Assembly: GCA_038042015.1 (NCBI GenBank)
Contig: JBBTFC010000068.1
Span: 3,851-55,692, forward strand
Length of the DNA stretch: 51,842 nt
Reading direction: 5' to 3'
From: Deltaproteobacteria bacterium
GTDB lineage: Bacteria > Desulfobacterota > GWC2-55-46 > UBA9637
Each line of letters starts with the position of its first letter. The stretch's first letter is position 1. The position numbers were made by a program, and so were the translations under genes. Positions 12,028 to 29,129 of the stretch are shown piece by piece. The notes beneath the pieces are model-generated. The model searched no databases and was not told the DNA's origin. It saw only the letters and a list, made by a program, of their open reading frames with translations.

Positions 12028-12094
12028 AATACTAACTACAAAAATACAGTTTAGCTCATGGCTGATAGCTCATAGCAACTACTATGAACTAAAT

Positions 12095-12187: not shown

Positions 12188-12196
12188 ATTAAATAC

Positions 12197-12270
12197 AGTG
12201 ATCAGTGCGCAGTGGTCAGTGTTCAGTAAAAGCTAACCACTAACCACTATCCACTGATCACTGACCACTG
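12197..12270. repeat. Word-built long hairpin (CAGTG/CACTG words), family B copy 1
   Basis: The left arm is cagtgatcagtgcgcagtggtcagtgttcagt. The right arm is aaccactaaccactatccactgatcactgaccactg, its approximate reverse complement. The element fills the spacer between the two tRNA-Ser genes. Confidence 0.8.
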
Positions 12271-12276
12271 TCCAAA

Positions 12277-12366
12277 TGGCGGAGAGAGAGGGATTTGAAC
12301 CCCCGGTAGAGTTGCCCCTACAGTTGATTTCGAGTCAACCGCCTTCAGCCTCTCGGCCATCTCTCC
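12277..12366 (-). tRNA. tRNA-Ser(CGA)
   Basis: The reverse complement is GGAGAGAUGGCCGAGAGG...GUUGA-CUCGAAA-UCAAC...long variable arm...GGUUCAAAUCCCUCUCUCUCCGCCA. Anticodon CGA, encoded CCA. Confidence 0.9.
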
Positions 12367-12497: not shown

Positions 12498-13490
12498 TTA
12501 TTCCAATATTTCTACAAAAGACATAAGTATCTCTCTATCCCAATACCCCTTTCCTGCCTCCAGCTTCATGACTTCCAAGGTCACCTCCTGAGGCATTCCT
12601 CGTCTGTACGGGCGGACAGATGTTAAGGCGTCATATATATCTGCAATCCCTATTATCCTTGCCCCCAACGGTATATTATCTCCTGTAAGACCGTCTGGAT
12701 AGCCTGTTCCATTGAACCTCTCGTGATGGTTGCGGATTATAGGAAGTAAGGGTTTGGCAAATTTAAGAGGGCTGCATATCTTTTCCCCAACCACAGGGTG
12801 TTGTTTTACATGTTCATATTCTATGGCATTTAATGCGCCAGCTTTATGTAGAATACCCTTGTCAGTCGCTACTTTCCCAATATCATGCAAAAGCCCTGCA
12901 TCCCTTATATTACCCTGCTCCTGCTGCGAAAGACCTAAGAAGCCTGCCAGCTTGCCTGCCATCTCAGAAACCCGGCGAGAATGTCCGTGGGTATAGGGGT
13001 CATTAAATTCCAGGGCTATTGCAAGGCTGAATATCACATTTCTTGCATCTTCCAGCTCTCCGAGAAGATTCTTAACCCGTACAAGAGATTTAACCCTTGC
13101 CAGAAGCTCAGGCTTCTGAAATGGTTTAGAAATAAAATCATCTGCCCCTGCCTCAATCCCCTTAATTTTATCATCTATACCAGACAATGCGGTAAGCATT
13201 ATTATCGGAATAAATCGGGTTGTCATCTTCTCTTTTAATCTTTTACATACCTCATAGCCATCCATCCGCGGCATCATTATATCCAGGAGGATTACATGCG
13301 GGAACACCTCTTCGGCCATCTTAAGGGCATCCTCACCATTGTAAGCCTTAAATATATTATACCCCATGGACGATAAAAGGGCATCAAGAAGCTCTACATT
13401 CCTGTAGTTATCATCCACCACCAGAATATTTACCTGAGCATCTTCCATCTTGCCATTGATTTGCTCTATACTCTTTACAGCCAAAGACAT
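12498..13490 (-). CDS. Response regulator with HD-GYP output domain (c-di-GMP phosphodiesterase type)
   Basis: The receiver domain shows ILVVDDN, LLDIMMPRMDG and the conserved K in FISKP. The HD-GYP domain shows HDIGKV and HHERFNGTGYP. The start is placed at ATG 13490 (AAGGAG 5-6 nt upstream). The ORF-track start at 13505 is the alternative. Confidence 0.85.
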   Translation of the reverse strand: MSLAVKSIEQINGKMEDAQVNILVVDDNYRNVELLDALLSSMGYNIFKAYNGEDALKMAEEVFPHVILLDIMMPRMDGYEVCKRLKEKMTTRFIPIIMLTALSGIDDKIKGIEAGADDFISKPFQKPELLARVKSLVRVKNLLGELEDARNVIFSLAIALEFNDPYTHGHSRRVSEMAGKLAGFLGLSQQEQGNIRDAGLLHDIGKVATDKGILHKAGALNAIEYEHVKQHPVVGEKICSPLKFAKPLLPIIRNHHERFNGTGYPDGLTGDNIPLGARIIGIADIYDALTSVRPYRRGMPQEVTLEVMKLEAGKGYWDREILMSFVEILE

Positions 13491-13514
13491 ATCATCTCCT
13501 TTCATCCGCCTTTT

Positions 13515-14174
13515 TTAAGGTGTAGTTTCTTTTTTAGCAGGGAAAGATATCGGAGGAAGCAATATATCATATCTTGCATGTTTATAAGAATTAAATGAGG
13601 TAAAATTAGCAAAAACCCAGCCATTTGCCACGCTCTTGCCCCCTTCTAAAAGCTCCACAAGCACAGCAGGATTCATAGGTTCATTTGATTGGGAGCTCAC
13701 ATAAGTATCATACATTGTGTAATGCGGCAAAAACACAAGAATCTTTATAGCAAATTTAGTGCCCTTCATAGGTGTCTCTTTGCCTACATTCACACTAATT
13801 AACTCCTCTGTCTTTTTCTCCTTATCAACCCATTTCAAATTAATGGTCTTCCACTTTACCTTGACATCATCAGGCACCCTAACCTCTCTTTTTACCCCAC
13901 CGGATGATAGATGACCAACTGCAGATTTATTTATATCGCCACTCCCTTTCTGGCCTATATCGTCTGCAATATCCTTGCCGCTAACTATAGATTGCTCCTG
14001 GCCGCCGCCTATGGGTGGATGCCCTTCAGGAGGCTTTGCCTCTCCAATTTCTGCCTTAACCTCTTTCTTTTCCTCAACATTACCTGTTTCTTTTTTTTCC
14101 TCTTGCTTGCTGCAGGAAAAAATAAGTCCAGCCAGCAAAAATAGCATTACCACCCTGCCAACATATCGTCTCAT
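13515..14174 (-). CDS. Lipoprotein of unknown function
   Basis: MRRYVGRVVMLFLLAGLIFSC is a lipobox signal peptide, followed by a K/E/G-rich linker and a beta-rich C-terminal domain. The start is at ATG 14174, with GGAGG 10 nt upstream. Confidence 0.6.
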   Translation of the reverse strand: MRRYVGRVVMLFLLAGLIFSCSKQEEKKETGNVEEKKEVKAEIGEAKPPEGHPPIGGGQEQSIVSGKDIADDIGQKGSGDINKSAVGHLSSGGVKREVRVPDDVKVKWKTINLKWVDKEKKTEELISVNVGKETPMKGTKFAIKILVFLPHYTMYDTYVSSQSNEPMNPAVLVELLEGGKSVANGWVFANFTSFNSYKHARYDILLPPISFPAKKETTP

Positions 14175-14264
14175 CTTAAAATAGCCTCCATATTTATGCA
14201 AAACCAGATTCTTATGAAAATTATACCATATTTTAAAAATATTTCAATAATAATTCCGCAACTC

Positions 14265-14969
14265 TTATTTTATTCCGAAAGTCTTTTTTGGGGAGCGATG
14301 GCACCTTTGGCAATTTTCAAACCCCTTCATCTGAAATGATACCTTGCCATGACATCTGCCGCAGAATTTCCCACTCCAGTTATCATACATGCTAAACTGG
14401 TTAGCGCCTCTTTTGGCTATAAATATGCCCGGGTGGCAAATCTTGCAGGAAAGCCAGAAATTATGCGCCTTATGCGGAAATATTACATTTGCCATAAGCC
14501 TGTCATTTATTTCAAAGAGGATATCCTCATCAAAGACTTCTGAGGCGGGCGCCTCTTCATTTGTAGATATAGACCCTCTGGGCTTTACTATCCCTTGTTT
14601 TGCAGTAGCAACCCAGTCAGGATAGCCAAACTTATCCTTCGGAAAACCCCTTATTGCGGGCGGAAGGTCTGAAAGCGGGCGGATAGCTGGAGATATCCAC
14701 GGGTCCCAGGTTACGGTAGGAGCTGGCCGTCCTTCTAACCTCTTTTTTATTTCCTCAGCAAATCCCGCCTTCACCTGCTCTTCTGCCTGTTCTTCTGCCC
14801 TTTTTTTCTCCTCTATTGCCTTAAAGGCTGCCTTTGTATCAAAGGCAGAGGATCCCCTTGGATAAACTGGTATTGTGTCTAAACCAGGGGTCTCACCCAC
14901 CTCCTTGATATCCTTTGTGCAACCGCAGATAAAAACTATCCCCAGTAAAACATAAAAAATAGACTTCAT
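14265..14969 (-). CDS. Lipoprotein with C-terminal c7-type triheme cytochrome module
   Basis: The lipobox is LGIVFICGC. The C-terminus FPHKAHNFWLSCKICHPGIF...FCGRCHGKVSF...CQRCH holds three CXXCH motifs in about 65 aa. It overlaps the NHL gene stop by 4 nt. Confidence 0.8.
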   Translation of the reverse strand: MKSIFYVLLGIVFICGCTKDIKEVGETPGLDTIPVYPRGSSAFDTKAAFKAIEEKKRAEEQAEEQVKAGFAEEIKKRLEGRPAPTVTWDPWISPAIRPLSDLPPAIRGFPKDKFGYPDWVATAKQGIVKPRGSISTNEEAPASEVFDEDILFEINDRLMANVIFPHKAHNFWLSCKICHPGIFIAKRGANQFSMYDNWSGKFCGRCHGKVSFQMKGFENCQRCHRSPKKTFGIK

Positions 14970-15904
14970 CCCTTTTCCTCTTGAAATACCTGTATCCTGT
15001 TGCCATCTATGGTATATATCCTTCCTTCCTTATCTATGAATATATATGAAGGATATGAAAGTTCCCCTTCTTTTACGCCAGGCCGTGATACGGCATGCTG
15101 AAAAACCCCTTTCTTATCAAAAACCAATATCCTGCCGGCATGCTGGTCCATTATGTATATAAGGCCGTTTTTATCCACTGCAAGGCTTGTAGGGAAGCGG
15201 AAGTTGTCTTTCTTATTTTCTCTGCTGCCAAATCTGGAAACAATACCTCCTTTATCGTCAAATATATAAACAACACCGGCAATTGCATCTATTGCATATA
15301 TCTCACCCTTATCATCCACCCTGACATCGGTAAATCCAAAAAAACCCTTATCTTTCACAGTAACTTCCCTTACAAATGCGCCTGTTTGTTCAACAATAAT
15401 AAGCCTTCTGTTTAACTTGTCAATAATATACAGCCTGTTGTCCGCATCTATCGCCATTCTGCCTGGCACAAACTGCTCCTTAGCTGAAGACACACCTGAG
15501 AGTGGAAATGATTTAACCACCTTCTTTTCAAGGTCAATAAATACTATCTCCCCTTTCCCCCTGTCCAGTATAAAAAAATGACCTTCCTTGTTTCTTACAA
15601 GGCTTGAGGGAAGCGTCATGGCCTCATTGGTTAATTCTGCCATGTATTTAAATTCCGAATCAAAAGAAACAAGCCTGCCATTCCCGCTGTCTGCTATATA
15701 GAGCCTTTTCTTAATCTCGTCAAAAAACAAACCGGATGGCTGTTTGAGCCTGCCCATAATCTCATCTCCGGTTATAACCGCAACAGTCCGTACCCCGCCT
15801 TTGTCCCCGGAAAATGCCGTGGTTGCAAAAGGCAAAATACAGAAAACAGAACACAGAAGAAATAATAAAAATTTTTGATTTTTGATTCCCATCTTATATC
15901 TCAT
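14966..15904 (-). CDS. NHL-repeat beta-propeller protein (secreted)
   Basis: It has a signal peptide and six repeats of the NHL kind (GRLVSFDSEF, GEIVFIDLEK, RRLIIVEQTG, GVVYIFDDKG, GRILVFDKKG, NRIQVFQ). Confidence 0.75.
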   Translation of the reverse strand: MRYKMGIKNQKFLLFLLCSVFCILPFATTAFSGDKGGVRTVAVITGDEIMGRLKQPSGLFFDEIKKRLYIADSGNGRLVSFDSEFKYMAELTNEAMTLPSSLVRNKEGHFFILDRGKGEIVFIDLEKKVVKSFPLSGVSSAKEQFVPGRMAIDADNRLYIIDKLNRRLIIVEQTGAFVREVTVKDKGFFGFTDVRVDDKGEIYAIDAIAGVVYIFDDKGGIVSRFGSRENKKDNFRFPTSLAVDKNGLIYIMDQHAGRILVFDKKGVFQHAVSRPGVKEGELSYPSYIFIDKEGRIYTIDGNRIQVFQEEKG

Positions 15905-15922
15905 AATCTTATCTCCCTAATT

Positions 15923-17155
15923 CTACATCTGATGGCATTGCTCGCATAATTCCCTGTCCTTCTCAAATCTCAGTACGGCCTTTTCAGGAGAACCCATAGG
16001 ATTGTGGCAGGTGCTGCAATTCATCGGCGTCTTGGAACGAGGGTCTATTATCTTTTCTCCGATTGGGTGCGTAAATTTACCTTGTGTAGAGTGACAGTTT
16101 TCCATTGCGCAGGTATCGTTGCCCTTTGTAAGAAAGAATTGGCTGTTTGAGCCATGTGATGTATGGCAATCCGAGCAAATGCCAAGCTTCGGATGTTTAT
16201 GATTGCTCTTTGCCACATATTCCTTTGTATCATTATGGCATTCATAACAAACCCTCGCCTCTTTATCTTTCAACAGATATTTCTCATCAGAGGCATGGGG
16301 ATTATGACAATTATTGCAAAGGTTGTCGGCTCCGCCTCCAATGAAGAAATGGCTATTTATTTTATTAAACCCGGCTAATACAGCCTCATGGCACTCTGTG
16401 CATAAACTGATACCGCTCTTTATAACAGATGCTGAACCAACAGGATGACAACTTGAGCATTTATTATCCTCAAACGGCTTATGCAGCGATGCCTTCATCA
16501 TGCCCTTTTTGTCGGAGGAATGCGGACTGTGGCAGCCAAGACAGTCGGTACCACTGACTTTATAACCCAGATGCGCCTTTGCAAATACCTCGCCGGTCCC
16601 GGGATGACAGCCTGCACAAAGGCTCTTTTTGTCCTTGATCAGCAAACCTTCCCTGTCCGATGAGTGCGGATTATGACAGACTATGCACCTCCCATTTTTA
16701 ACTTCAGGATGGACATTCTTCTTATTGATTATACTTTCCTTTGGATGACACGAAAAACACCCTTCCCCCCCTGCCTTCTTCAATAACCCCATTATATCTG
16801 ATGAATGCGCATCATGGCAGGAAAGACAATTTCCCTCTTCAACAGGCTTATGCACAACCTTACCCATGAAACCCTTTTTCTGGTCATGGCAGTTGTAGCA
16901 AAGGTCGCTGCCTGTGTATGATAAAAGGCCCGCATGCTTTGATGCATGAGGATTGTGGCACCATGTGCATTTACCATCTTTAACAGGTTGATGGACAGCT
17001 GCCTTATTAGTCAATTCCTCCGCTTTTTTTGAATGGCATTCAAGGCAAATTCCCCTGGTGTCTTTCACAGCCTTCGCATAAATTATCCCTGGCTGAAGGC
17101 CGAGAAAAATAACCAGACCAATTGTTAGCCATATTATATGTCCAGAGGACTTCAT
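15923..17155 (-). CDS. Multiheme cytochrome c, 16 heme-binding motifs
   Basis: It has an N-terminal signal/anchor helix. I counted 15 CXXCH motifs plus one CX4CH (CAMENCH, 16091-16111). The repeated unit C..CH.PH.S....L is the doubled-CXXCH type. Confidence 0.9.
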   Translation of the reverse strand: MKSSGHIIWLTIGLVIFLGLQPGIIYAKAVKDTRGICLECHSKKAEELTNKAAVHQPVKDGKCTWCHNPHASKHAGLLSYTGSDLCYNCHDQKKGFMGKVVHKPVEEGNCLSCHDAHSSDIMGLLKKAGGEGCFSCHPKESIINKKNVHPEVKNGRCIVCHNPHSSDREGLLIKDKKSLCAGCHPGTGEVFAKAHLGYKVSGTDCLGCHSPHSSDKKGMMKASLHKPFEDNKCSSCHPVGSASVIKSGISLCTECHEAVLAGFNKINSHFFIGGGADNLCNNCHNPHASDEKYLLKDKEARVCYECHNDTKEYVAKSNHKHPKLGICSDCHTSHGSNSQFFLTKGNDTCAMENCHSTQGKFTHPIGEKIIDPRSKTPMNCSTCHNPMGSPEKAVLRFEKDRELCEQCHQM

Positions 17156-17183
17156 TTCTTACATCGCTCCTTATATATAATTG

Positions 17184-17255
17184 CAGGAGAGGGGCTTGTC
17201 CCCTCCTGTGGTGGGACAGGCATCTTGCCTGTCATCACAGGCTGGAAGCCTGTGC
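17184..17255. other. Three consecutive GC-rich hairpins in the intercistronic spacer between the 26-heme and 16-heme genes
   Basis: The hairpins are caggagaggggcttgtcccctcctg (17184-17208), gacaggcatcttgcctgtc (17215-17233, 8-bp perfect stem) and cacaggctggaagcctgtg (17237-17255, 7-bp perfect stem). Confidence 0.8.
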
Positions 17256-17294
17256 CACTGGAGACCACAAGGATCTCTCCTACAATAATACCCC

Positions 17295-19232
17295 TTATAA
17301 CTTTTGATGGCACCTGTCGCATTCTCCTTTTTCAAAAGGAGTATGCATTATCTTATGTATAAGCCTTTTATCCTTTCCTGCATGAGGCTCATGACAGCCA
17401 AGACAGTCAGCGCCCTTTGTAGAGATATTCCCATGCGCCTTTACGAATTTTGCATCTCCCTGGTTTGCATGGCAATTATTGCACAATGTGTCACCCCTCG
17501 CTATCAATAGCCCTCTCTCATTTGAATAATGCGCAGAATGACATTTTTGGCAATCACCGTCTGCAACAGGCCTATGGGTAACAATATCCTTTTCCTTTAA
17601 ACTCTTATCAAATTCTGCATGACAAGAAAGGCACAAACTTTTAAGAGGACGCGGTAAAAGTCCCTTTATTTTACTGCCGTGCGGCCTGTGACAGTCAATA
17701 CATTTTTCTTCAAATACCGGCTTATGAGGATATTTTGCAATCTGAATGCCAATTTTAGTGTCTTTATGGCAATTATAACAAAGAGCGCCTTTCTCTTCCG
17801 TCAACTGTTTTGTATTATTGCTGGCATGCGCATCATGGCAGCTAAGACATTTGCCTTCCTTGAAAACAGGGTGTGTCCCTTGTTCCCCTATCTCTCTTAG
17901 CATACCGGAATGACATTTAAAACACAATTCCTCTTCCTTTAATAAAGCAAGTTTCTTTACCTCGCTTGCATGGGGGTTATGGCAGGCAGTACATGCCCCA
18001 TCCCTTACCTTGGGATGCCTTGTCACTTTATTAAATTTCTTTTTTTCCTGGCTGTGGCAGCTATAACACAGGTCTTCAACAGGTGAAACCAGTTCAAAAT
18101 TATAATCTGACGCATGGGCATCATGACACGGCAGGCAATTATTCTGAGCAATAGGGGCATGCGTTACCGTCTTAACAAAACCGTCCTTATTGTGACATTT
18201 ATAGCAAAGTTGGGCGCCAACTACACGAAGCGCATCCTTATTGTCAGAGGCATGTGGGTCATGGCAGCCGGAGCAATCTCCCTTGGCTATCGGAGTATGG
18301 GTAAACTTCTTTGCATGCCTCTTTTCTGTAGCTTTGTGGCAGCTATAGCAAAGCGGCTTTTCCGGTATCAAAAGCTCATTCTTCTGGTCAGTTGCGTGGG
18401 GACTATGACATGCTGTGCAGTCCCCTTTAAGAACAGGCGAATGAACAAGTGCCTTTTTAAACCCATTTTCCTGGGCAGTATGGCAAGTATAGCAAAGTTT
18501 ATCAGCTTGAAGTTTTGTTTTTAACGGTTCTTTTGAATCAGGAGAATTATGGCAGTCACTGCATTTTCTCTGGCCAAATGGCCCGTGATTGTATTCCCTT
18601 ACAAGCTTATCGCTTGACGAAGAGTGCGGAGTATGGCATGAAAGACAGTTGGTTCCTGCAACCTTATAATTAAAGTGTCCATCTGTAAATTTTACAGCAT
18701 TTACATCATGGCACTTTTCACACAACTTATTGCCTTTTTCAAGCAGGTTATAGCCATGCTCTGAGGAATGCGGATTATGACAGTTGTCGCAGCCGTCCGC
18801 AACTGCCTTGTGGATTGTCTTTTTTGCAAAAGGCCCCTTTGCATGGCAAAGATAGCATAGGTCATTTCCTGAAACCCTTGTAAGCCCTTTTAATTTTGAA
18901 GAGTGCGGATTATGACATTTAAGACATATACCTTGTGTTAACGGCGTATGCAGCGGCGCTTTTTCAAGTCTTGACCTGTCTTTTTCATGACACTGATAGC
19001 AGAGTTTTGCGTCTTTTTCCTTTAGTCTTAACGCCCCGATAAGGCCGTGCGGTATGTGACAAGCTTCGCAGTTGTTGTCAGCAAGGGGCTTATGCAGATT
19101 CCCCTCCTTGTATTTCAACATCTCTTTCTGGTGGCAATCCGAACAGGACTTTCTTACTATTCTTGTGCCCATACAACCTGACAGCATCAAGGTTGCAGCA
19201 AGGATTATCAACGAAAAACGAATAGGCTTCAA
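17295..19232 (-). CDS. Multiheme cytochrome c lipoprotein, 26 heme-binding motifs
   Basis: 645 aa with a TTG start and AGGAGG 8 nt upstream. The lipobox is ATLMLSGC. I counted 26 CXXCH motifs arranged as a roughly 45-aa repeating doubled-CXXCH unit. Confidence 0.9.
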   Translation of the reverse strand: MKPIRFSLIILAATLMLSGCMGTRIVRKSCSDCHQKEMLKYKEGNLHKPLADNNCEACHIPHGLIGALRLKEKDAKLCYQCHEKDRSRLEKAPLHTPLTQGICLKCHNPHSSKLKGLTRVSGNDLCYLCHAKGPFAKKTIHKAVADGCDNCHNPHSSEHGYNLLEKGNKLCEKCHDVNAVKFTDGHFNYKVAGTNCLSCHTPHSSSSDKLVREYNHGPFGQRKCSDCHNSPDSKEPLKTKLQADKLCYTCHTAQENGFKKALVHSPVLKGDCTACHSPHATDQKNELLIPEKPLCYSCHKATEKRHAKKFTHTPIAKGDCSGCHDPHASDNKDALRVVGAQLCYKCHNKDGFVKTVTHAPIAQNNCLPCHDAHASDYNFELVSPVEDLCYSCHSQEKKKFNKVTRHPKVRDGACTACHNPHASEVKKLALLKEEELCFKCHSGMLREIGEQGTHPVFKEGKCLSCHDAHASNNTKQLTEEKGALCYNCHKDTKIGIQIAKYPHKPVFEEKCIDCHRPHGSKIKGLLPRPLKSLCLSCHAEFDKSLKEKDIVTHRPVADGDCQKCHSAHYSNERGLLIARGDTLCNNCHANQGDAKFVKAHGNISTKGADCLGCHEPHAGKDKRLIHKIMHTPFEKGECDRCHQKL

Positions 19233-19258
19233 ACTTCTTTCCTCCTGATTACAGAAGA

Positions 19259-19286
19259 CAAGGGCGAACCTGTGTGTTCGCCCTTG
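19259..19286 (-). terminator. Probable intrinsic terminator or attenuating hairpin after the PPIase gene
   Basis: caagggcgaac-ctgtgt-gttcgcccttg has an 11-bp perfect stem. On the minus strand it is followed by TCTTCTGTAATC, which is only moderately U-rich. It separates the two envelope/cytochrome operons. Confidence 0.5.
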
Positions 19287-19303
19287 TTAGGGCAGACACG
19301 TAG

Positions 19304-20836
19304 CTACTTGCCTTGCAGTTTATCAAGTTCCTTCTGGTTTATCTCTATTGCCACTGTTTCTCTTAGCTGTTTGATATATCCATTTAATGCACCATTAAAC
19401 ATCTCCCTTCCAACTATCGTATCTATTTCGCTTCTCACCCTGTCAAACGGTATATATGCGCCCTTTTCAAGGCCGCGAAACTCTATAATAGCATAACCCG
19501 CCTCTGAAGAAAACGGCCCTAATATATCTCCTTCTTTTGCCCTCTGAATAGCCTTGTTAATGTCACCAGAGAGTTGATTTGTCTCCACCCAACCGATATC
19601 CCCTCCTTTTTCCCTGGAAGTGTCTACTGATTTTTCTCTTGCAAGATATGAAAAGTCGCCGCCTTTTTTAAGGTCATCAAATATGGTCTTCGCCTCTCCC
19701 TCATCCCCTAAATGTATCATCCTTAAATTTACCCTGTCAGACCCCCTGTAGTTTTCCTGATTTGCCTTATAATAGTCCAAAATATCGTTCTCATCAACTT
19801 TTATTGCAGGAAGAATGGCCTTTTTCTTAAACTGCTCTATAAGCTGCGGCTCCTTGTATTTCTTTATCTTTGCCTTAATCTGTTCATCATTCTCATAACC
19901 CATGTTCATTGCCTTATGGTCAAGAAGCTTATACAGGACAAGCTTATCTAAAACTTCCTTTTTTGCATCCTCACCCTGTGCCTTAGAAGAGATCAGTTCT
20001 CTTAATACATCTATGCCTAATATGGATTCACCATTCACATTTGCAACATCTTTGCCAAAAAGTTCGGTTTTATCACGGGAGAGTGCGCTTAAAACCTCAT
20101 TATCTATCTTCACCTTTGCCTTTTTTCTAAGTTCATCAAAATATTCCTTTTCCCTTTCTTTTGTCTTTATATCAAAAAAACCTTTTCTGATTACATCCCT
20201 GTCCGCAGCCGACATCTTCGGCGGCTCTTCCTTTTTATCCGAATCTTTTTTAACCTCTTCTTTTGCAGCATCTGTCTTTTCTTTTTCAGCCTTTTCTTTA
20301 TCGGCTTTTTCCTGAGCTTTTTCCTTTTCCTCTTCTTTCTTCTTTAATTGTTCATGGTAATAGTCTTCTATCTCTTTATCTTCCACTTTAATCTTATTTA
20401 ATATCTCTTCCTGACGGAGCTTGTCCAAAAACAGATTAAGGGCAAAGTTATCCATGACCATTATAAAATCTGCCTCTTTATCCAGCCCCAGATTTCTGGC
20501 CTCTATTGCCATAAGCTTATTGTCTATGAGCTCGCTTAGAAACTTGCCAAAATCCTGCATTGCAAAAGAGGTTTGCTCAGAAAGGTTCCTGCCTACCCGG
20601 CTGCTTTTGTGCAGTTTATCTATCTTGTCTAAAAACTCATCTTTTGTAATAATCTCATCCCCAACCCTGGCAATATACACCTCTTTTTTTGCGGAGGTAA
20701 AGGGCCAGAAACCGAAAGAATCTCCGGTCCCCCCTATAAAAACGAAAAAGATAAAAACCGTGGTCAGGAAAACAATATCCCTTAATCTTCTGATCTCTGA
20801 CTTATGCCTTCTGACTCCTGACTTCTTTATCATCAT
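19304..20836 (-). CDS. Membrane-anchored parvulin-type peptidyl-prolyl isomerase (SurA/PpiD-like)
   Basis: It has an N-terminal TM helix and a SurA-N-like helical region with a K/E-rich insert. The C-terminal PpiC domain shows LRMIHLGDEGEAKTIFDDLKKGGDFSYLAREKSVD...GGDIGWV. Confidence 0.8.
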   Translation of the reverse strand: MMIKKSGVRRHKSEIRRLRDIVFLTTVFIFFVFIGGTGDSFGFWPFTSAKKEVYIARVGDEIITKDEFLDKIDKLHKSSRVGRNLSEQTSFAMQDFGKFLSELIDNKLMAIEARNLGLDKEADFIMVMDNFALNLFLDKLRQEEILNKIKVEDKEIEDYYHEQLKKKEEEKEKAQEKADKEKAEKEKTDAAKEEVKKDSDKKEEPPKMSAADRDVIRKGFFDIKTKEREKEYFDELRKKAKVKIDNEVLSALSRDKTELFGKDVANVNGESILGIDVLRELISSKAQGEDAKKEVLDKLVLYKLLDHKAMNMGYENDEQIKAKIKKYKEPQLIEQFKKKAILPAIKVDENDILDYYKANQENYRGSDRVNLRMIHLGDEGEAKTIFDDLKKGGDFSYLAREKSVDTSREKGGDIGWVETNQLSGDINKAIQRAKEGDILGPFSSEAGYAIIEFRGLEKGAYIPFDRVRSEIDTIVGREMFNGALNGYIKQLRETVAIEINQKELDKLQGK

Positions 20837-20837
20837 C

Positions 20838-21431
20838 TTATTTTATTGTGTCTATCATCTCCCTGACAACTTTCTGCGTAAGCGCGGTTAGAGACCTCAC
20901 CTCGCCGAGGTCAAGGACAATAATATAATCATCCCCTTTTCTCTTATTTTGGCCTGACCATATGAGCTTGCCGGTATTAGAGTCAATCATCCTTGCGGTG
21001 ATTGCAACCGTTGGCACAGAATACGCGCCGCCAGCCTCGGCAAATTCTTCTACTGTGCCGGTCATAACAGCATCTACGCCAAGACGTTTGCCAAGGATCT
21101 TCAACCTTTCTATTTCAATCTCACCTATGGTGTCCATCCTTTCCTGTATCATAAACTGAACTATGTTGCCGGTCTCTTCTACATTAAACCTGTCGGTTTT
21201 AAACATCTCAGTGACAAATATATTGGCAACCACCTTGCCGGCATCCCGATACCCGCTTATATTGTAAAATGGAAGTATAGCCACCTTTTTTGAGGCATGG
21301 GGTGAAAGAGCCTCCCGTGACAAAACTGCGCAACCTACTATAAGCAACGGAGTTAAAAACAAGGTTAAGACCAAATTAAAAATCTTTAACCAGTATCCGG
21401 GATTCAACCTTGACAATGGCTCTTTATTCAT
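20838..21431 (-). CDS. Small lipoprotein, TolB-N/LpoB/CsgG-like fold predicted (paralog 1 of 3)
   Basis: The lipobox is LLIVGC. The core KKVAILPFYNISGYRDAGKVVANIF...LGVDAVMTGTVEEF...ITARMIDSNTGKLIW is shared with 24861-25439 and with the N-terminus of 23225-24748. Confidence 0.65.
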   Translation of the reverse strand: MNKEPLSRLNPGYWLKIFNLVLTLFLTPLLIVGCAVLSREALSPHASKKVAILPFYNISGYRDAGKVVANIFVTEMFKTDRFNVEETGNIVQFMIQERMDTIGEIEIERLKILGKRLGVDAVMTGTVEEFAEAGGAYSVPTVAITARMIDSNTGKLIWSGQNKRKGDDYIIVLDLGEVRSLTALTQKVVREMIDTIK

Positions 21432-21982
21432 AACTGAAATTCTTTAACAGCCTCTTCTAATCTTTTCTGCACATCTAAAATCTTTTTTATATGCTCATCC
21501 CCTTTGTTTACATTGTTAGAGCAAACTGCAAGTTCATCTGATGCTGTCTTAATTTTCCCCAATTTTAACTTAAGCTTTTCAATCATAATATTCAGGGCTT
21601 CAGCAAGTTCCCCGACCTCATCACCCTTACGGACTGAAAACCTTACAGTGAGATTACCCTCGCCAACTTTTTCCTTAATTTCCTTCTCCATCCTGTATAA
21701 AGGACCTGCTATCTTGTGAGGGAAAAAGAGGGCTATGATAAATGCTACAATAATGCCGATAATCAAAGCAATTACAATAGCCGGCAGAAGGAAATCCAGA
21801 AAATTTCTCGCCTGTATATGAAAGTGTCTGAATGACTGACCTATCTCCTGATTACTGTAAATGTAGAAGAAGGCAGAGAGTATCGCTGTGTTTATCAAGA
21901 CAATCAGCATTACCCTTACGAGCAACCTTAACTGCATATGCCTATTTATAGAGTAATTTATAACGCTTCTTCTATTCTGCAT
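21428..21982 (-). CDS. Two-TM HAMP-domain protein with no recognisable output domain
   Basis: It has two hydrophobic helices, a HAMP-like segment (IAGPLYRMEKEIKEKVGEGNLTVRFSVRKGDEVGELAEALNIMIEKL) and a short coiled coil. It overlaps the next gene by 4 nt. Confidence 0.65.
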   Translation of the reverse strand: MQNRRSVINYSINRHMQLRLLVRVMLIVLINTAILSAFFYIYSNQEIGQSFRHFHIQARNFLDFLLPAIVIALIIGIIVAFIIALFFPHKIAGPLYRMEKEIKEKVGEGNLTVRFSVRKGDEVGELAEALNIMIEKLKLKLGKIKTASDELAVCSNNVNKGDEHIKKILDVQKRLEEAVKEFQL

Positions 21983-22049: not shown

Positions 22050-23222
22050 TTAGATATACGGTTCGCCTGTATGGCATGAGATGCACAGGTCTCTTCCAGA
22101 ATCCATCCTTATAAAATATCTTTTATTGCCGCCATGAGGGTTGTGGCATGTAACGCAGGTTATTACACCGCCTTCTATGGTCGGAAGAGCAGACGAAATT
22201 TTTGTTTTTAAGCCCTTGCTCCTCATCCCAACAGGGTGCGATGCGCCTTGCGGGTGACACTTAACACACGCATCTATCATGGAAACCCTTTCAGGAACCA
22301 AACCGAAACCATGCTTATCAATCTCAGCAGGCTCAGTGACTATTAAATATGCCTTCACAGGCTTATCGCTTAGAAGTTTAAGAAAAATATCTTTTGTACC
22401 TTTTATTTTAAAGGCATTGGCCTCTTTTATTTCAGGTAGTGTCTTATCTATAATCCTTGCGCCTTCCCCCTTATCACTAATTTTCATGGATGTATCAAGC
22501 ACAAAATTATTTGACACGGTTTCATTGCCGAATATATCTCTGGATATTACGCGATAATGGTACTGCTTGCCTGGCCTCAGCCCCGCTATTGTTATTTTGT
22601 GCCCATTTGCAAATATCTTCTCATATACTGCTGTTTCCCCATACCGGGGAGTTAATCCGTACTCCACAATTGAGTTGCACGGCTTATCTGTATCCCATGC
22701 AATTACTGCCTCAAGAAATACAGCCTGCCTTATTTCTGCTACTGCCACATTCCTGATGAGAGGCGGCTTCCGGTCATTATCCATAGAGGCATTCACCTGT
22801 GATGGTATAAGTTGCAAAGAATTAACTTTTACCTCATTCCCTGCGCTATCCTTTACTTTCAAATCCAACTGATATTTTCTGTCCCAGGACAGGTCCTTCA
22901 AAAAAAATATCTGTTCTCTCTGACCAGACAGGGAGGCAACCTCCCATACCCTGCCTGTTTTAGTAAACCCCTTTAAAATATGACACAGTTCACATTTATC
23001 CTCTTCTACAACAGAATGCCGGTATTGTAATGCCGCGATCCGCGCATATACATCATCCAGCTTAAGTTCTAAGGCCTTTGAGCCGGAATGGCAATCTCTG
23101 CAGCCGCCTGAGCCTCCATTTCTGCTCCAAGACAAGTCGCCGGGTGCCGCCAGTAGTAAAAACCATATAAAAACAACTACCGCAAGGACCAAAAGGGCTG
23201 ATGAAAGGATGTACTTACCCAT
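22050..23222 (-). CDS. Membrane-anchored pentaheme cytochrome c with a central FN3-like domain
   Basis: It has an N-terminal TM helix and five CXXCH motifs (CRDCH, CELCH, CVKCH, CVTCH, CISCH). The central AWDTDKPCNSIVEYGLTPRYGE...ITIAGLRPGKQYHYRVISRDIFGNE is the fibronectin-III / purple-acid-phosphatase-N type signature. Confidence 0.8.
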   Translation of the reverse strand: MGKYILSSALLVLAVVVFIWFLLLAAPGDLSWSRNGGSGGCRDCHSGSKALELKLDDVYARIAALQYRHSVVEEDKCELCHILKGFTKTGRVWEVASLSGQREQIFFLKDLSWDRKYQLDLKVKDSAGNEVKVNSLQLIPSQVNASMDNDRKPPLIRNVAVAEIRQAVFLEAVIAWDTDKPCNSIVEYGLTPRYGETAVYEKIFANGHKITIAGLRPGKQYHYRVISRDIFGNETVSNNFVLDTSMKISDKGEGARIIDKTLPEIKEANAFKIKGTKDIFLKLLSDKPVKAYLIVTEPAEIDKHGFGLVPERVSMIDACVKCHPQGASHPVGMRSKGLKTKISSALPTIEGGVITCVTCHNPHGGNKRYFIRMDSGRDLCISCHTGEPYI

Positions 23223-23224: not shown

Positions 23225-24748
23225 CTAAAAGTCCTCAGCCAATTGACCCTTTTGATCCGCCTTTGCAAACGGGGTTTTTCTGGAAAGGATGGATGGTATT
23301 GATTTGGTTAAGTTGAATGGATTGTCCGCATTATCTACAGCAGTAAGTGAAAATGCCATTGAATTTATATCAAATTCTGCTTCCACAAAGTATTCCACTT
23401 TTGGCGGAAACTCGCCTGTCCCTTCAATTGTCTTTACAGGCTTGCCTCCTCTATCAAGTATGGATAGCTTCCATGATTTTATATCATCATCAGGGCTATG
23501 CCTGAAAGTAAACAGCACCTTGTCTTCTATCTTATCCATATCAACTTCTATAACAGGGGGGGTGTTCTTTATCTTTAAGCTGTCGGTCAAAACGGCTTCA
23601 TTCCCAGCAATATCTTTTACCACAAACCTGTATGTATATTCTCCATCTGATGCCTGAACAAGTCTATCTGTTTCACCCCTCCAGATGAGTCCCTTGGGCA
23701 GCTTGCCATATCCTTTATCGCCCCTCATCATCTTCCCTTTTTTATCAAGGATTTCTATTTCCCATTCATCAATCTCATCAAAACTCAGAAGCCTGGGGGT
23801 AAATATTATATAACCCTTTCTCTGGGGGGCAAAAATTTTCCTGTTAATCGTCAAGCTAACCTTTGGCGGTGTGCTGTCAACAATCATCTTCCCTACGGCG
23901 CCAAATGGAAATAACGACATTGCCCCATCTCTTGCAACCACATCTACAGGATATATCCCTTCCTGAAGAGGCGCAGTCATAACCCCTTCATATTCCCCAT
24001 CCTCTCCTTTGACAAGGCTTATTTCAGCGCCATCAACTACAGCCTTTACCTCTTTTGGCTCCTCTGTGATAGACACTACCTTTACTCTTAACCCAACCCT
24101 TGCCCCACCCTTTGCTACAGTAGGAAATGTATCCGCCTTTTCTATCTCAAACGGACTTAGCCCCGTCTCTTTTATGAAAAACTGGGCTGCTATGCCCTTT
24201 ACAAGATCCTTTGCAACCCTTGAACTTAAGACATCAACTGATGTTATAAGACCAAATCCAAGAAGACCAACAAAATCCCGTTCTGTGTAAGAAATGGTGT
24301 CTGCCCATATTACGCTGCCGTCAATGGTATTAACCAAACGGGCTGTCACCGCCACGTTCATCCTGCCATTTACGTCAGAGAACTGGTTTATCGAACCAAC
24401 CAGCACAGCATCAACCCCAAGAACTTTTCCCATTTCTCTTACAGCCAGCCTTGTTACGCCGCCGGTATAACGGATCCTCCTCTTTGCAAGAAATTCCTCA
24501 ACAGTGTCGTCAATGGTTATAAACACCAACCCCTTGCCTCTCAATTCCTTTTTTATAAGCTCGGTAATAGTCTTTGTGGCAATAGGGTTTTCACTAAGAT
24601 TTTCAAACGGCAGAATAGAGATATCCTTTAAAATAATAGGCTGGCTTGAGTTATTACCAAGCCCATTACCTATTGCCGCAATTGGAGGAATGGCAAAAAC
24701 AAAAAGACAGGAGATGGAAGACAGAAGACAGCATAAGAAGATTCTCAT
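23225..24748 (-). CDS. Large secreted or lipoprotein: TolB-N/LpoB-like module (paralog 2) plus Ig-like (FlgD-Ig type) repeats
   Basis: The start is set at MRIFLCCLLSSISCLFVFA (24748). The N-terminal module is ISILPFENLSENPIATKTITE...LGVDAVLVGSINQF...VTARLVNTIDGSVIW. The C-terminal repeats are of the kind WEIEILDKKGKMM...WRGETD...DGEYTYRFVVKDIAGNE. Confidence 0.65.
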   Translation of the reverse strand: MRIFLCCLLSSISCLFVFAIPPIAAIGNGLGNNSSQPIILKDISILPFENLSENPIATKTITELIKKELRGKGLVFITIDDTVEEFLAKRRIRYTGGVTRLAVREMGKVLGVDAVLVGSINQFSDVNGRMNVAVTARLVNTIDGSVIWADTISYTERDFVGLLGFGLITSVDVLSSRVAKDLVKGIAAQFFIKETGLSPFEIEKADTFPTVAKGGARVGLRVKVVSITEEPKEVKAVVDGAEISLVKGEDGEYEGVMTAPLQEGIYPVDVVARDGAMSLFPFGAVGKMIVDSTPPKVSLTINRKIFAPQRKGYIIFTPRLLSFDEIDEWEIEILDKKGKMMRGDKGYGKLPKGLIWRGETDRLVQASDGEYTYRFVVKDIAGNEAVLTDSLKIKNTPPVIEVDMDKIEDKVLFTFRHSPDDDIKSWKLSILDRGGKPVKTIEGTGEFPPKVEYFVEAEFDINSMAFSLTAVDNADNPFNLTKSIPSILSRKTPFAKADQKGQLAEDF

Positions 24749-24860
24749 TCTCGATTTTTGCCCCGCATGGAATACTGGGGTGATTTTTAGCTTCCTTTGT
24801 CTGTTCACAACTCCCCTCCTCCTGGTTTTCAAAGCTAAGGCATTAAAACACAATAAACCG

Positions 24861-25439
24861 CTACAATAGGGTATCCAGCGCGCTCTTCACTGCCCTTCTT
24901 GTCAATTCGCTTCTATCTACCTCCTCAATACCTATCAACTTTCTCAAAACACTCCTGCTCGTCTCGGTGGCCTTTGCCTGCCATAGGATTATACCTGAAC
25001 CTGTATCAATCATCCTGGCGCCAATTGACACAATACTGCCGCCACTACCCGCGCCTGAATATTCATCTACACTCCCAAGTATTACAGCCTGCACACTCAA
25101 TTTCTCTCCAATCAGTTTTAGCGTCTCCTTATCTACCGGCACAGCCCTGCCTTCTTCAACGCCAGCCTCTCTGAATATTACACTAAGAACCTTTGTAACC
25201 TCTCCCTGCTCCACCACCTCAAAGACCCCCCTGGACATAAGGTCTACAATCAAGGAGTTTCTTATCCTTTCACCCGCATACCTGTCATCACTAAGATTAT
25301 TGAACGGCAGCACCGCTATTTTCTTTATGTATGAAAAGTTGGCTGTCGGATTAATATACCTTACTGTAGACCCGCAGCCTCCAATAAAGATAAGGAAAAA
25401 TAAAACCACACCCCCCCTTTTCACATAACTATTATACAT
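24861..25439 (-). CDS. Small lipoprotein, TolB-N/LpoB/CsgG-like fold predicted (paralog 3 of 3)
   Basis: The lipobox is LIFIGGC. The core is KKIAVLPFNNLSDDRYAGERIRNSL...LSVQAVILGSVDEY...IGARMIDTGSGIILW. Confidence 0.65.
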   Translation of the reverse strand: MYNSYVKRGGVVLFFLIFIGGCGSTVRYINPTANFSYIKKIAVLPFNNLSDDRYAGERIRNSLIVDLMSRGVFEVVEQGEVTKVLSVIFREAGVEEGRAVPVDKETLKLIGEKLSVQAVILGSVDEYSGAGSGGSIVSIGARMIDTGSGIILWQAKATETSRSVLRKLIGIEEVDRSELTRRAVKSALDTLL

Positions 25440-27685: not shown

Positions 27686-27686
27686 G

Positions 27687-29129
27687 TCATCTTTCAAGCA
27701 ATAGCGCCCCATATGGACTCTTTCCAACAAAGAGTTCTTTTAACACCCTTTCCCCTATCGGGTCAAGAAGAGAGACCGTATTATCTCCATAATTTGTTAC
27801 ATAAAGGCGGTTTCTTTTTTCATCGCCCGCAAGCCCTGTCGGCATTATTCCAACCGGTATAGTCCTTGTAACAACATCCTGAGAGTTAAAAAATGTAAGT
27901 GTATTTGCAGCGGTATTTGCGACAAAAAGTCTCTTGCTGAATCCCTGCATACCCCTTTTAGGAGGGCCTTCGACAGATATGGTTGCAACCACTTTTCTTA
28001 AAGAAGGGGAGATAATGCTTATCCTGTTGGATCCTTCGTTAAAGACATATATCTTATCTTTGCCGGCATCATCTTTGCCGACAAAAACACCTGTCGGCCT
28101 GTTATCCACTGTAATATTAGCAACCAGTGTGTCATCAATGGCGTTTATGATGCTTAGATTGTTTGATCTCTCGTTTGTCACGTAAACTTCCTTCCTGACA
28201 GCGTCCGCAGCAATGCCTGAAGGGCCTATCCCAACAGCAATGCTCTTTAATGTGCGCTTTGCTACAGTACTCACCACTGTAACATCATTGGATATCCGGT
28301 TTGCAATATAAAGTTTGCCTTCAATTAAATTGTTATCATCAGGTATAATTACTATATCTACCGGTAATATTCCTGCTGTCAGATAGATTGTATCCAGCAC
28401 AGAAAAGCGGGTTACATCCACTACAGATATATTCCTTGAAGCGGAGTTTACAACATAAAGCCTGTCCTGTGTGGCATTTAATGCCATACCCATTGGTCTG
28501 TCGCCAACTGTTACAGCGCCTATAACCCTTTCAAGGCTTCTGTCTATTATGGATATATAGTTTGACGCGCTGTTTGATATAAACAAGAGCAGCTCTCTTG
28601 CCGAAGGTATCTGTGTTTCTATTTCTATAGATGGCTGAAAAATATGCCCCTTTTCAATAGATTTCTCAGTGTCCCATACAAGAGAAACTGCTGAGATTTC
28701 CTTTCTTTGCAACCTGATATTCGATTTTATCACAACCTCTCCACCAGGCTGCGGAAGGGCAAGGCTTACATGACCATCTCTTCCCATGACAGATGCCCTT
28801 GAAATGATTAGTTTCAGACCTTTATACTGACCAGGCTCTACAGCCGCTTCTTTTAAGAGTATCTGCCTGTCAATCAAACCAGTGGACATTATGTCAACCG
28901 GACTATCTATCAGATTTATCCATCTGTTGTCTTCTGCCTGAAGTTTAATTTCAGATATTGTGAAGGCTATATTCGGAGGGGCAAGCGATGTTGAGTGCAT
29001 ATAAATAAGAAGCCTTGCAGCGGAAGAAGAGGATAGTGGTGGTGAGGTATCTATCAGCCATTTCTCGCAAGAGATAAATAGCAAAGAAGACAGCAGAAGA
29101 AAAAAAAGATATATCCTTTTAAAGGTCAC
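27687..29129 (-). CDS. Lipoprotein with DUF4382-like N-domain and YVTN-type beta-propeller
   Basis: It has a GTG start with GAGG upstream, and the lipobox LLFISC. Repeats include LYVVNSASRNISVVD, LYIANRISNDVTVVS, VYVTNERSNNLSIIN, IYVFNEGSNRISIIS, LFVANTAANTLTFFN and LYVTNYGDNTVSLLD. Confidence 0.75.
   Translation of the reverse strand: MTFKRIYLFFLLLSSLLFISCEKWLIDTSPPLSSSSAARLLIYMHSTSLAPPNIAFTISEIKLQAEDNRWINLIDSPVDIMSTGLIDRQILLKEAAVEPGQYKGLKLIISRASVMGRDGHVSLALPQPGGEVVIKSNIRLQRKEISAVSLVWDTEKSIEKGHIFQPSIEIETQIPSARELLLFISNSASNYISIIDRSLERVIGAVTVGDRPMGMALNATQDRLYVVNSASRNISVVDVTRFSVLDTIYLTAGILPVDIVIIPDDNNLIEGKLYIANRISNDVTVVSTVAKRTLKSIAVGIGPSGIAADAVRKEVYVTNERSNNLSIINAIDDTLVANITVDNRPTGVFVGKDDAGKDKIYVFNEGSNRISIISPSLRKVVATISVEGPPKRGMQGFSKRLFVANTAANTLTFFNSQDVVTRTIPVGIMPTGLAGDEKRNRLYVTNYGDNTVSLLDPIGERVLKELFVGKSPYGALLLER

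Follow-up and report, generated by a model that had tools for sequence, protein, structure and literature searches.

The window analyzed here, a stretch of 51,842 nucleotides (nt) of contig JBBTFC010000068.1 from an uncultured groundwater lineage named 'Deltaproteobacteria bacterium', carries on its minus strand a 14-gene, 16.6-kb envelope cluster (12498–29129) that encodes a 26-heme lipoprotein, a 16-heme cytochrome, a large β-barrel and a series of companion proteins. The cluster is a further copy, in this lineage, of a published cluster type that has been named several times. An original prediction, made from the sequence, had singled out five minus-strand genes (13515–19232) as an operon of exported proteins. 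All five open reading frames (ORFs) are present, and every product bears an export signal recognizable at its N-terminus, such signals having been judged by eye throughout the cluster. However, the five genes are no separate unit of operon size, being the downstream third of the larger cluster: those for the two cytochromes and an NHL propeller belong with the genes upstream, whereas those for a triheme lipoprotein and a lipoprotein of 228 amino acids (aa) are lineage-specific additions.

Gene content of the cluster

The 14 genes, from the first to the last, are as follows.

27687..29129, minus strand: lipoprotein with a seven-blade YVTN-type β-propeller, 480 aa, the first gene of the cluster (TIGR02276)
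25496..27730, minus strand: outer-membrane β-barrel, 744 aa, ~30 strands (AlphaFold2 (AF2) model and Foldseek)
24861..25439, minus strand: LpoB/DUF799/CsgG-like lipoprotein, 192 aa, lipobox IGGC (paralogy, weak family matches)
23225..24853, minus strand: exported 542-aa protein, LpoB-like N-terminal domain followed by immunoglobulin (Ig)-like domains (Pfam)
22050..23222, minus strand: pentaheme protein, 390 aa, with a hydrophobic N-terminal segment (five CXXCH, Pfam)
21428..21982, minus strand: HAMP membrane protein without an output domain, 184 aa (Pfam HAMP)
20838..21431, minus strand: lipoprotein, 197 aa, lipobox IVGC, paralog of the 192-aa lipoprotein (sequence identity)
19304..20836, minus strand: SurA/PrsA-like parvulin peptidyl-prolyl isomerase (PPIase), 510 aa (Pfam)
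17295..19232, minus strand: 26-heme lipoprotein, 645 aa (26 CXXCH, lipobox)
15923..17155, minus strand: 16-heme cytochrome with a Sec signal peptide, 410 aa (15 CXXCH plus one CX4CH)
14966..15904, minus strand: exported six-blade NHL β-propeller, 312 aa (Pfam NHL)
14265..14969, minus strand: lipoprotein with a C-terminal c7-type triheme domain, 234 aa (TIGR04257)
13515..14201, minus strand: lipoprotein with a DUF2155-like C-terminal region, 228 aa (sub-threshold DUF2155)
12498..13505, minus strand: response regulator (RR) receiver plus HD-GYP protein, 335 aa, a putative cyclic di-GMP (c-di-GMP) phosphodiesterase (Pfam)

From the 26-heme gene to the gene for the 228-aa lipoprotein, the gaps are 139, 18, −4 and 63 nt; 71 nt lie between the end of the PPIase gene and the 26-heme gene, and 9 nt between the gene for the 228-aa lipoprotein and that for the RR/HD-GYP protein. 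Upstream, the cluster is bounded by a divergent SpoIID gene starting at 29474 on the plus strand.

The two large cytochromes

The 645-aa protein contains exactly 26 CXXCH motifs, together with 55 His and 53 Cys, and begins with MKPIRFSLIILAATLMLSGC; its TTG start codon is preceded, 8 nt before, by a strong AGGAGG Shine–Dalgarno sequence. Although the predicted lipobox and motif number stand, the repeat proves longer than the ~45 aa given originally: the motifs are spaced by 22–28 residues, mainly in alternation of 23 and 25, which makes a doubled-CXXCH period of ~48 aa. The histidines are enough for bis-His ligation of all 26 hemes with 3 to spare, and the holo-protein, of ~86 kDa, consists of 13 tandem MtrA-type paired-CXXCH modules. 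Paired_CXXCH_1 of Pfam matches it at 445 bits in 12 stretches, and TIGR03508, the NCBIfam family of DmsE/MtrA decaheme proteins, at 292 bits (cut-off 192) in five partial stretches.

In an alignment with 14 database proteins of ~650 aa (33–36% identity), all 26 CXXCH motifs, the lipobox Cys20 and the other module His are invariant, and most heme sites are likewise invariant in a 40-sequence alignment of the family. Exactly 26 CXXCH are present in 36 of the 37 syntenic homologs from the fetched loci, and 26 also in 35 of 42 database matches of 600–760 aa. Because they are invariant across such diverged homologs, the repeats must be functional heme sites, and chance as their source was rejected. 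The best match in a database search has 37% identity, but the protein is no orphan, since closer relatives (69–84%) occur in GTDB genomes and the neighboring barrel has an identical database entry.

A sequence search of the Protein Data Bank (PDB) matches the 26-heme protein to 6r2q_A (expect value (E) 3.4e-17), which we take to be MtrA of Shewanella MtrCAB, the molecule label given by the depositor in the file being wrong. The same chain is the sole significant PDB fold match (E 2.7e-7, 27% identity, template modeling (TM) score 0.42 on the target) of an AF2 model built from the 40-sequence alignment (predicted local distance difference test (pLDDT) 89.5, predicted TM score 0.70). In comparison, no protein of the cluster reaches the cut-off (209) of TIGR03507, the MtrC/OmcA family, the best score being the 14.5 bits of the pentaheme protein.

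The family has a second size class of ~1060 aa, with exactly 42 CXXCH in 69 of 74 matches, most of which lack a lipobox; hosts named for this class are the FCB group, Zixibacteriota, Latescibacterota, Krumholzibacteria and Gemmatimonadaceae.

The 410-aa protein, as originally described, has 15 CXXCH motifs and one CX4CH (CAMENCH), and its 33 His are enough for bis-His ligation of 16 hemes, with 1 to spare. At the position of CAMENCH, 27 of the 36 syntenic homologs have CXXCH and 9, including the window protein, CX4CH; since the aligned position is an ordinary CXXCH in most homologs, CX4CH is taken as the 16th heme site. The N-terminus is an ordinary signal peptide without a lipobox, and the holo-protein is of ~52 kDa. 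Paired_CXXCH_1 matches at 249 bits in 8 units, whereas TIGR03508, with 179.7 bits over several partial stretches, stays under the cut-off of 192. The PDB sequence search gives 6r2q_A (E 4.2e-15) and also NrfB (2ozy), the C-terminal part being NrfB/NrfH-like. In every locus that extends that far, the 16-heme gene lies directly downstream of the 26-heme gene.

Judged by their sequences, both cytochromes are concatenated MtrA/DmsE-type paired-CXXCH modules. The remark in the original prediction that neither layout matches known proteins is therefore wrong at the level of modules, both proteins matching MtrA (TIGR03508, 6r2q_A), and the cluster had already been published (PMC5539420, PMC10553843, PMC13194489, PMC8322314); the heme numbers and the MtrA fold of a lipoprotein do differ from MtrCAB. 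The Pfam and TIGRFAM searches that it had proposed lend support to its heme modules and propeller, through matches to Paired_CXXCH_1, NHL, TIGR04257 and TIGR03508.

The NrfB-like part of the 16-heme protein and weak, sub-threshold NCBIfam matches to NrfB, NrfH and HmcA could be read as signs of a catalytic multiheme enzyme, with the cytochromes as possible subunits of a periplasmic respiratory enzyme, for example an oxidoreductase acting on nitrite, sulfite, hydroxylamine or tetrathionate. However, these matches lie far under the cut-offs (HmcA, 39 vs 400 bits), and by the His counts essentially every heme has a second His ligand. The mature proteins have 24 residues per heme and neither CXXCK nor any catalytic or cofactor domain, and no enzyme subunit gene is found within the cluster. 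The catalytic reading, which we regard as extremely improbable, was rejected on these grounds.

The upstream barrel and other conserved proteins

The original prediction also held that a partner barrel may be encoded immediately upstream, and this is supported. The 744-aa ORF, the true start of which is probably 18 nt downstream (738 aa), has no sequence match in Pfam, NCBIfam or the PDB. Its AF2 model (31 sequences, pLDDT 83.9) is all-β and consists of ~12 long strands, an inserted domain and ~18 further strands. The top Foldseek match in the PDB is MtrB (6r2q_B, E 6e-9, TM 0.34/0.38), followed by LptD, TonB-dependent transporters and ushers; TM scores are 0.2–0.38 overall, and low values are expected because the strand numbers differ. 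The position of the barrel gene relative to the cytochromes is fixed in other genomes.

A profile search with the barrel over 1.84 billion representatives at 50% identity gave 1281 proteins at E ≤ 1e-3, of which 1006 reach E ≤ 1e-10; most of the best 150 matches listed are full-length (680–770 aa). Database entry P0121 is 100% identical to the window barrel, and an identical barrel lies on a Hainich groundwater contig. The domain inserted in mid-barrel (residues ~296–426, window ~26453–26845) is discoidin/F5-F8-type-C-like. It is kept in 13 of the 13 barrels compared from other clusters, with the motifs LIDG[DN], W.[VL]Y.S.DG..W and YFKVV; one of these inserts passes the Pfam F5_F8_type_C threshold, and that of the window scores 16.6–18 bits. 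A cytochrome could dock on the insert, or the insert could attach to surface glycans or minerals.

Three LpoB-like domains accompany the barrel. With the 192-aa lipoprotein, the 197-aa lipoprotein shares 31% identity and the N-terminal domain of the 542-aa protein 27%, and all three have the motif LPF.N.S in common, which hints at a hetero-oligomeric ring or scaffold beside the barrel. Family assignments are weak: GNA1162-like (DUF799), LpoB and CsgG for the 197-aa lipoprotein, and 'LpoB, CsgG (weak)' for the counterpart of the 192-aa lipoprotein gene in locus L002 (loci from other genomes are cited by L numbers). The 542-aa protein, called as 527 aa in L041 (ENA start), scores 29.1 bits with Pfam LpoB and has weak Big_13 and FlgD_ig matches; PDB sequence searches with it and with the 228-aa lipoprotein gave no match.

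The remaining conserved proteins are more readily classified. The PPIase has the Pfam domains Rotamase, Rotamase_2 and SurA_N, and its gene is the immediate upstream neighbor of the 26-heme gene in nearly every locus that reaches far enough in that direction. The 312-aa propeller, whose gene directly follows the 16-heme gene across loci, is the six-repeat NHL protein of the original prediction (Pfam NHL 56 bits, DUF5128 '6-bladed beta-propeller', six blade motifs by eye). The 480-aa propeller has the lipobox FISC, matches TIGR02276 (beta_rpt_yvtn) at 156 bits and resembles YncE/lactonase propellers. A PADLOC scan of four accessory proteins found nothing.

The pentaheme protein consists of two CXXCH motifs, an FN3-like domain and three further CXXCH motifs (Paired_CXXCH_1, 47.8 bits; weak FN3 and purple-acid-phosphatase-N matches), and the 184-aa protein has a Pfam HAMP domain (37 bits). 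Their genes are always together, either inside the cluster, as in the near clade (L003–L006) and in L010 of Desulfofervidaceae, or downstream of the propeller (L002, L014, L025, L026, L030, L032 and L034). The pair is a candidate for the inner-membrane end of the pathway.

Distribution of the cluster

Related loci were sought with a single peptide pattern in one genome per GTDB species; 38 were returned, ORFs were called in all of them, and these were compared by BLAST with 14 window proteins. The nearest relatives (69–84% identity) are 'Deltaproteobacteria bacterium' metagenome-assembled genomes (MAGs) from groundwater and the Rifle aquifer. Distant ones (33–50%) belong to Desulfuromonadales, Malonomonas rubra DSM 5091, Thermosulfurimonas, Thermodesulfobacteriota, Desulfofervidaceae and the MAG 'E20SeepSRB2'. 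In loci that are long enough, the recurring order is barrel, 192-aa lipoprotein, 542-aa protein, 197-aa lipoprotein, PPIase, 26-heme protein, 16-heme protein and NHL propeller. All eight conserved genes occur in this order in L015 (MAG 'E20SeepSRB2', contig PQXE01000022) and in L010, where the 26-heme homologs have 34–41% identity. Most loci also encode a homolog of the 480-aa YVTN propeller, which either immediately precedes the barrel or follows the NHL gene at a distance of a few genes.

The downstream end of the cluster is specific to the lineage. The 234-aa lipoprotein (lipobox FICGC; three CXXCH, five His, four Met) ends, as originally described, in a c7-type triheme domain (TIGR04257, 59.7 bits, cut-off 40), which matches the structure of the Geobacter dodecaheme protein GSU1996 (3ov0, E 2.7e-26); it is found at the cluster position only in the near relatives L004–L007. 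The 228-aa lipoprotein, originally described as being of unknown fold, has a lipobox-like LIFSC and a DUF2155 score of 20.8 bits, under the cut-off of 27. All of its 24 database homologs come from one 'Deltaproteobacteria bacterium' lineage, one of them being named DUF2155, and only L005 and L006 have it at the cluster position. The RR/HD-GYP protein (Response_reg 106.6 bits, HD_5 124.5 bits; Pfam) is encoded there only in L005–L007.

Transcription signals and flanking genes

A scan of the cluster for sigma-70-like promoters and terminators gave counts close to the shuffled expectation, and transcription units are not defined by it. The best sigma-70-like match in the cluster (14247..14220, minus strand; 11 of 12 positions) consists of TTGAAA, a 16-nt spacer and TATAAT with an extended −10 TG, and lies just upstream of the gene for the 228-aa lipoprotein. 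Because of this promoter-like site, that gene and the RR/HD-GYP gene may be transcribed apart from the cytochromes. GC-rich hairpins are present in two intergenic regions, one at 19262–19290 between the PPIase and 26-heme genes (GGGCGAAC-acaca-GGTTCGCCC, then a T-rich run), and several stems at 17156–17294 between the 26-heme and 16-heme genes. As attenuators or elements of mRNA stability, these hairpins may determine in what ratio the cytochromes are made.

Downstream of the RR/HD-GYP gene, two tRNA-Ser genes (anticodons CGA and GGA) and a small signal recognition particle (SRP) RNA gene (Rfam 71.6 bits) occupy 11926–12366 on the minus strand, between the cluster and dnaX. The cluster thus abuts tRNA genes, and horizontal mobility has been proposed for it in the literature; its GC content is the same as that of its flanks.

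A second group of cytochrome genes lies at 32258–37896 on the minus strand. It includes genes for a 351-aa protein with a c7-type triheme domain, a tetratricopeptide repeat (TPR) protein, and a 478-aa protein with two class-I cytochrome c domains and an ethylbenzene-dehydrogenase-type heme-b domain, as well as a 143-codon open frame (stop to stop, 33352–33783) with three CXXCH motifs. The 420-aa hexaheme protein of the group (33934–35196) was considered as an OmcS-like cytochrome; this was rejected, the protein being composed of two GSU1996-type c7 domains (3ov0, E 1e-40). This hexaheme protein, outside the cluster, scores 20.3 bits with TIGR03507, compared with the cut-off of 209. Elsewhere, at 5011–6233 on the minus strand, a gene for a small Ras/Arf-like GTPase adjoins a Roadblock/LC7-domain gene, forming an MglA/MglB-like polarity pair unrelated to the cluster.

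Published counterparts

Two of the published descriptions come from partners of anaerobic methanotrophic archaea (ANME). An operon of a 26-heme protein, a 16-heme protein, a PPIase and a propeller was reported in SEEP-SRB1 by Skennerton 2017 (PMC5539420), with homologs in Desulfuromonadales, Geobacter, Anaeromyxobacter, Desulfofervidus, Thermodesulfobacteria and Desulfurivibrio; its physiological function was not known to the authors, who noted no expression during metal respiration. The same type was later described by Murali 2023 as the Oet conduit, composed of the periplasmic OetA, the porin OetI and the extracellular lipoprotein cytochrome OetB (PMC10553843). Its S5 table lists, in order, the propeller, omb, DUF799/CsgG-like lipoproteins, PPIase, hmlB and hmlA, and names the counterpart of the 192-aa lipoprotein 'DUF799 family lipoprotein' or 'CsgG'. 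The 645-aa protein thereby corresponds to hmlB (OetB in the text), the 410-aa protein to hmlA (OetA in the text) and the barrel position to omb (OetI), and, in HotSeep-1, the 480-aa propeller corresponds by position and size to the 'YVTN beta-propeller'. Common to SEEP-SRB1/Oet and the window are the four core genes (PPIase, 26-heme, 16-heme and six-blade propeller) and the upstream genes in their order. In contrast, the host of the window belongs to the uncultured groundwater lineage and is not an ANME partner, and its cluster adds the triheme lipoprotein, the DUF2155-like lipoprotein and the RR/HD-GYP gene at the end. Adjacent extracellular or filament-type cytochromes (OmcS-like, OmcX-like, Apc2a) are frequent but not obligatory in the published set (PMC10553843). 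No OmcS-, OmcX- or ExtA-like gene flanks the cluster within the 51.8-kb window, where the other CXXCH ORFs encode c7-type triheme and hexaheme proteins, the diheme/ethylbenzene-dehydrogenase-type protein and small ORFs.

Geobacter sulfurreducens and Desulfovibrio ferrophilus are not among the 38 loci from the single-pattern scan, and both were compared through the literature only. The order in D. ferrophilus IS5 is a six-blade propeller, a seven-blade lipoprotein propeller, an 'F5/8 type C domain protein', a lipoprotein, an OmpA-family protein, a lipoprotein, a PPIase, a lipoprotein multiheme cytochrome, a Sec multiheme cytochrome and a six-blade propeller (PMC8322314, Table 2). As far as this table goes, the annotated gene order of DFE_0451–0465 is identical to that of the window, with the 480-aa propeller matching DFE_0452, the PPIase DFE_0457, the 645-aa protein EL361_RS02315 (DFE_461), the 410-aa protein DFE_0462 and the NHL propeller DFE_0463. 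At the barrel position, the name 'F5/8 type C domain protein' for DFE_0453 agrees with the discoidin-like insert of the window barrel. Extra multiheme cytochromes (DFE_0464/0465 and DFE_0448–0450) adjoin the cluster in D. ferrophilus, which is a difference from the window. The product of DFE_461 was found in a heme-stained outer-membrane fraction, and the cluster is induced by electron-donor starvation (Deng 2018, PMC5815863).

Among the characterized conduits, MtrCAB of Shewanella (6R2Q) resembles the window cluster in several respects. Modules of the MtrA type make up both window cytochromes, MtrB is the best fold match of the barrel, and the logic of a Sec cytochrome, a lipoprotein cytochrome and a barrel is shared, the pattern of lipobox versus Sec signal in the window paralleling that of MtrC versus MtrA. 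The two differ as follows: MtrCAB has 10 + 10 hemes and the window proteins 16 + 26; the window cluster has many extra genes; its lipoprotein cytochrome has the MtrA rather than the MtrC/OmcA fold; and its barrel is unlike MtrB in sequence, has ~30 strands and carries the discoidin-like insert, porins of the MtrB/PioB type having 26 strands. Likenesses in the described parts extend to two further systems, Uet and PCC3. Uet of Ca. Tenderia electrophaga has a PPIase (UetB), a 28-strand barrel (UetC), c7-type triheme proteins (UetD/E/G), NHL propellers (UetH/I), an 11-heme cytochrome, a cupredoxin and a tetraheme protein (bioRxiv 10.1101/2022.05.06.490989). PCC3 of Sideroxydans/Gallionella combines a porin with 21–27-heme and 10–35-heme cytochromes (PMC10734462). 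In both cases, heme numbers and gene order differ from those of the window, and the cupredoxin and tetraheme protein belong to Uet.

A proposed conduit across the outer membrane and its alternatives

We favor, with a confidence slightly better than even, the reading of the cluster as a porin–cytochrome conduit across the outer membrane; the topology of the complex, the direction of electron flow and the physiological role are what we infer from fold, signal-peptide type, synteny and analogy. The Sec-exported 16-heme protein would be a periplasmic wire that inserts into the ~30-strand barrel in the manner of MtrA, and the 26-heme protein, held by its lipid at the outer membrane, would extend the chain of hemes, most likely at the cell surface. 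In characterized conduits, the external cytochromes are the lipoproteins (MtrC, OmcB and ExtC/D). MtrA is said (Edwards and colleagues, 2020) to arrange 10 hemes over ~8 nm; scaled from this value, the 16-heme and 26-heme proteins would be rods of ~12 nm and ~20 nm. The SurA-like PPIase may fold the proline-rich, peptide-minimized cytochromes, and the three LpoB/DUF799-like proteins and the two propellers may serve as scaffold or assembly factors of the complex. The c7-type triheme lipoprotein of this lineage probably delivers electrons to the conduit, or withdraws them, on the periplasmic side, and the RR/HD-GYP gene suggests c-di-GMP-linked control.

The original prediction of an extracellular electron-transfer module is partly supported: electron transfer fits the His counts, the 24 aa per heme and the MtrA fold, whereas the role is contested, with a published rival function in nanowires and a dispute over the membrane side. 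Data from relatives speak for a conduit: besides the outer-membrane recovery of the DFE_461 product and the starvation response in D. ferrophilus, gsu2495, the Geobacter counterpart of the 26-heme gene, has been reported to be up-regulated in an omcB-deficient strain on Fe(III) oxide (PMC10599522). Several observations weigh against a conduit. The TM scores of the barrel to MtrB are low (0.34–0.38), and it has more strands and an inserted domain that MtrB lacks. Deletion of DFE_0461–0462 left the Fe(III) oxide reduction of D. ferrophilus unimpaired (PMC9769857). Not all members of the 26-heme family have the lipid anchor, since the signal peptide is a plain one in a subclade (Acidobacteria or Polarisedimenticolia where named). 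Moreover, the location of the 26-heme protein is disputed, being given as extracellular (PMC10553843) or as periplasmic or outer-membrane-bound on the periplasmic side (PMC5815863, PMC13194489).

If the periplasmic assignment is right, the 26-heme lipoprotein could sit on the inner leaflet of the outer membrane as a periplasm-spanning wire or electron store that bridges to an inner-membrane partner, such as the pentaheme/HAMP pair, with either the 16-heme protein alone or neither cytochrome entering the barrel. PSORT-type predictions place homologs in the periplasm (PMC5815863, PMC13194489, PMC5539420), and the 21–27-heme cytochromes of PCC3, a parallel to this arrangement, have been argued to be long enough to span it (PMC10734462). 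The fold of the 26-heme protein is that of MtrA, the component on the periplasmic side, rather than that of MtrC/OmcA; the pentaheme protein, with its hydrophobic N-terminus, and the membrane HAMP protein are conserved companions; and the Acidobacteria-type subclade lacks the lipobox. In proteomics of D. ferrophilus, the lipoprotein cytochrome was cell-associated and DFE_0462 appeared in the extracellular fraction (PMC8322314, Table 2). However, localization predictors perform poorly on lipoproteins, lysis products end up in extracellular fractions, and an extracellular position was assigned by Murali and colleagues (PMC10553843). The external place that lipoprotein cytochromes take in MtrC-, OmcB- and ExtC/D-type conduits, as is generally known, is a further argument against a periplasmic wire, and we consider this arrangement quite unlikely.

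A different role is suggested by Geobacter. GSU2495 of G. sulfurreducens has 26 hemes and ~70 kDa (PMC12977616, PMC2996986). According to PMC13194489, citing Shen 2025, GSU2495 and GSU2494 are oscI and oscJ of the omcS-companion (osc) operon GSU2494–GSU2504. This article gives the operon roles in OmcS nanowires and not in a conduit, which speaks against our reading: folding for the PPIase OscH, secretion for the channel-like OscE/F/G and morphology for the propeller OscD (~473 aa). These proteins resemble those of the window in kind and, so far as can be told, in gene order. By gene order and size only, the 645-aa protein maps to OscI, the 410-aa protein to OscJ, the PPIase to OscH and the 480-aa propeller to OscD. 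The Geobacter operon, as described there, differs in containing the filament-type hexahemes omcS, omcT and oscC, of which the window has none.

By extension, the PPIase, barrel, LpoB/CsgG-like proteins and seven-blade propeller may be a machine that folds, exports and organizes an extracellular filament-forming cytochrome, with the 26-heme, 16-heme and NHL proteins as accessories that, for example, charge the filament. In addition to the osc roles given in PMC13194489, the composition of the cluster points this way: a PPIase, a barrel, three LpoB/CsgG/DUF799-like paralogous domains and a propeller form a chaperone and channel-like set that exceeds what an MtrCAB or Pcc conduit needs. However, the 51.8-kb window contains no OmcS- or OmcX-like gene. 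In every locus that extends that far, the invariant cytochromes are the 26-heme and 16-heme proteins, which favors a place for them in the core, or as the cargo, over an accessory role. The assignment of OscE/F/G to window genes goes by gene order and relative size only. We regard an assembly machine of this kind as possible but improbable; it is compatible with the conduit model.

An extension of these ideas, which we offer as speculation and think rather doubtful, is that the conserved upstream genes (those for the PPIase, the barrel, the three LpoB/CsgG-like proteins and the propeller) encode not a passive porin but a dedicated export-and-assembly machine whose ancestral cargo is the 26-heme lipoprotein itself, an extracellular single-polypeptide rod of ~20 nm, the system being coupled in this lineage to c-di-GMP turnover through the RR/HD-GYP protein.

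Implications

The copy in the window adds no new principle and no new experimental handle to a cluster type that is widespread, its barrel family alone counting ~1,000 representatives at 50% identity (E ≤ 1e-10), and that has been tied in the literature to methane-oxidizing consortia, iron corrosion and Geobacter nanowires. The mechanism of this cluster type is contested between a conduit, the reading that we favor, and a nanowire assembly machine. A cluster that has no neighboring filament cytochrome mildly favors the 26-heme and 16-heme proteins as the functional core. If the speculation on an exported rod is true, the 26-heme protein would be an alternative to polymerized cytochrome filaments in organisms without a nearby OmcS-type gene.

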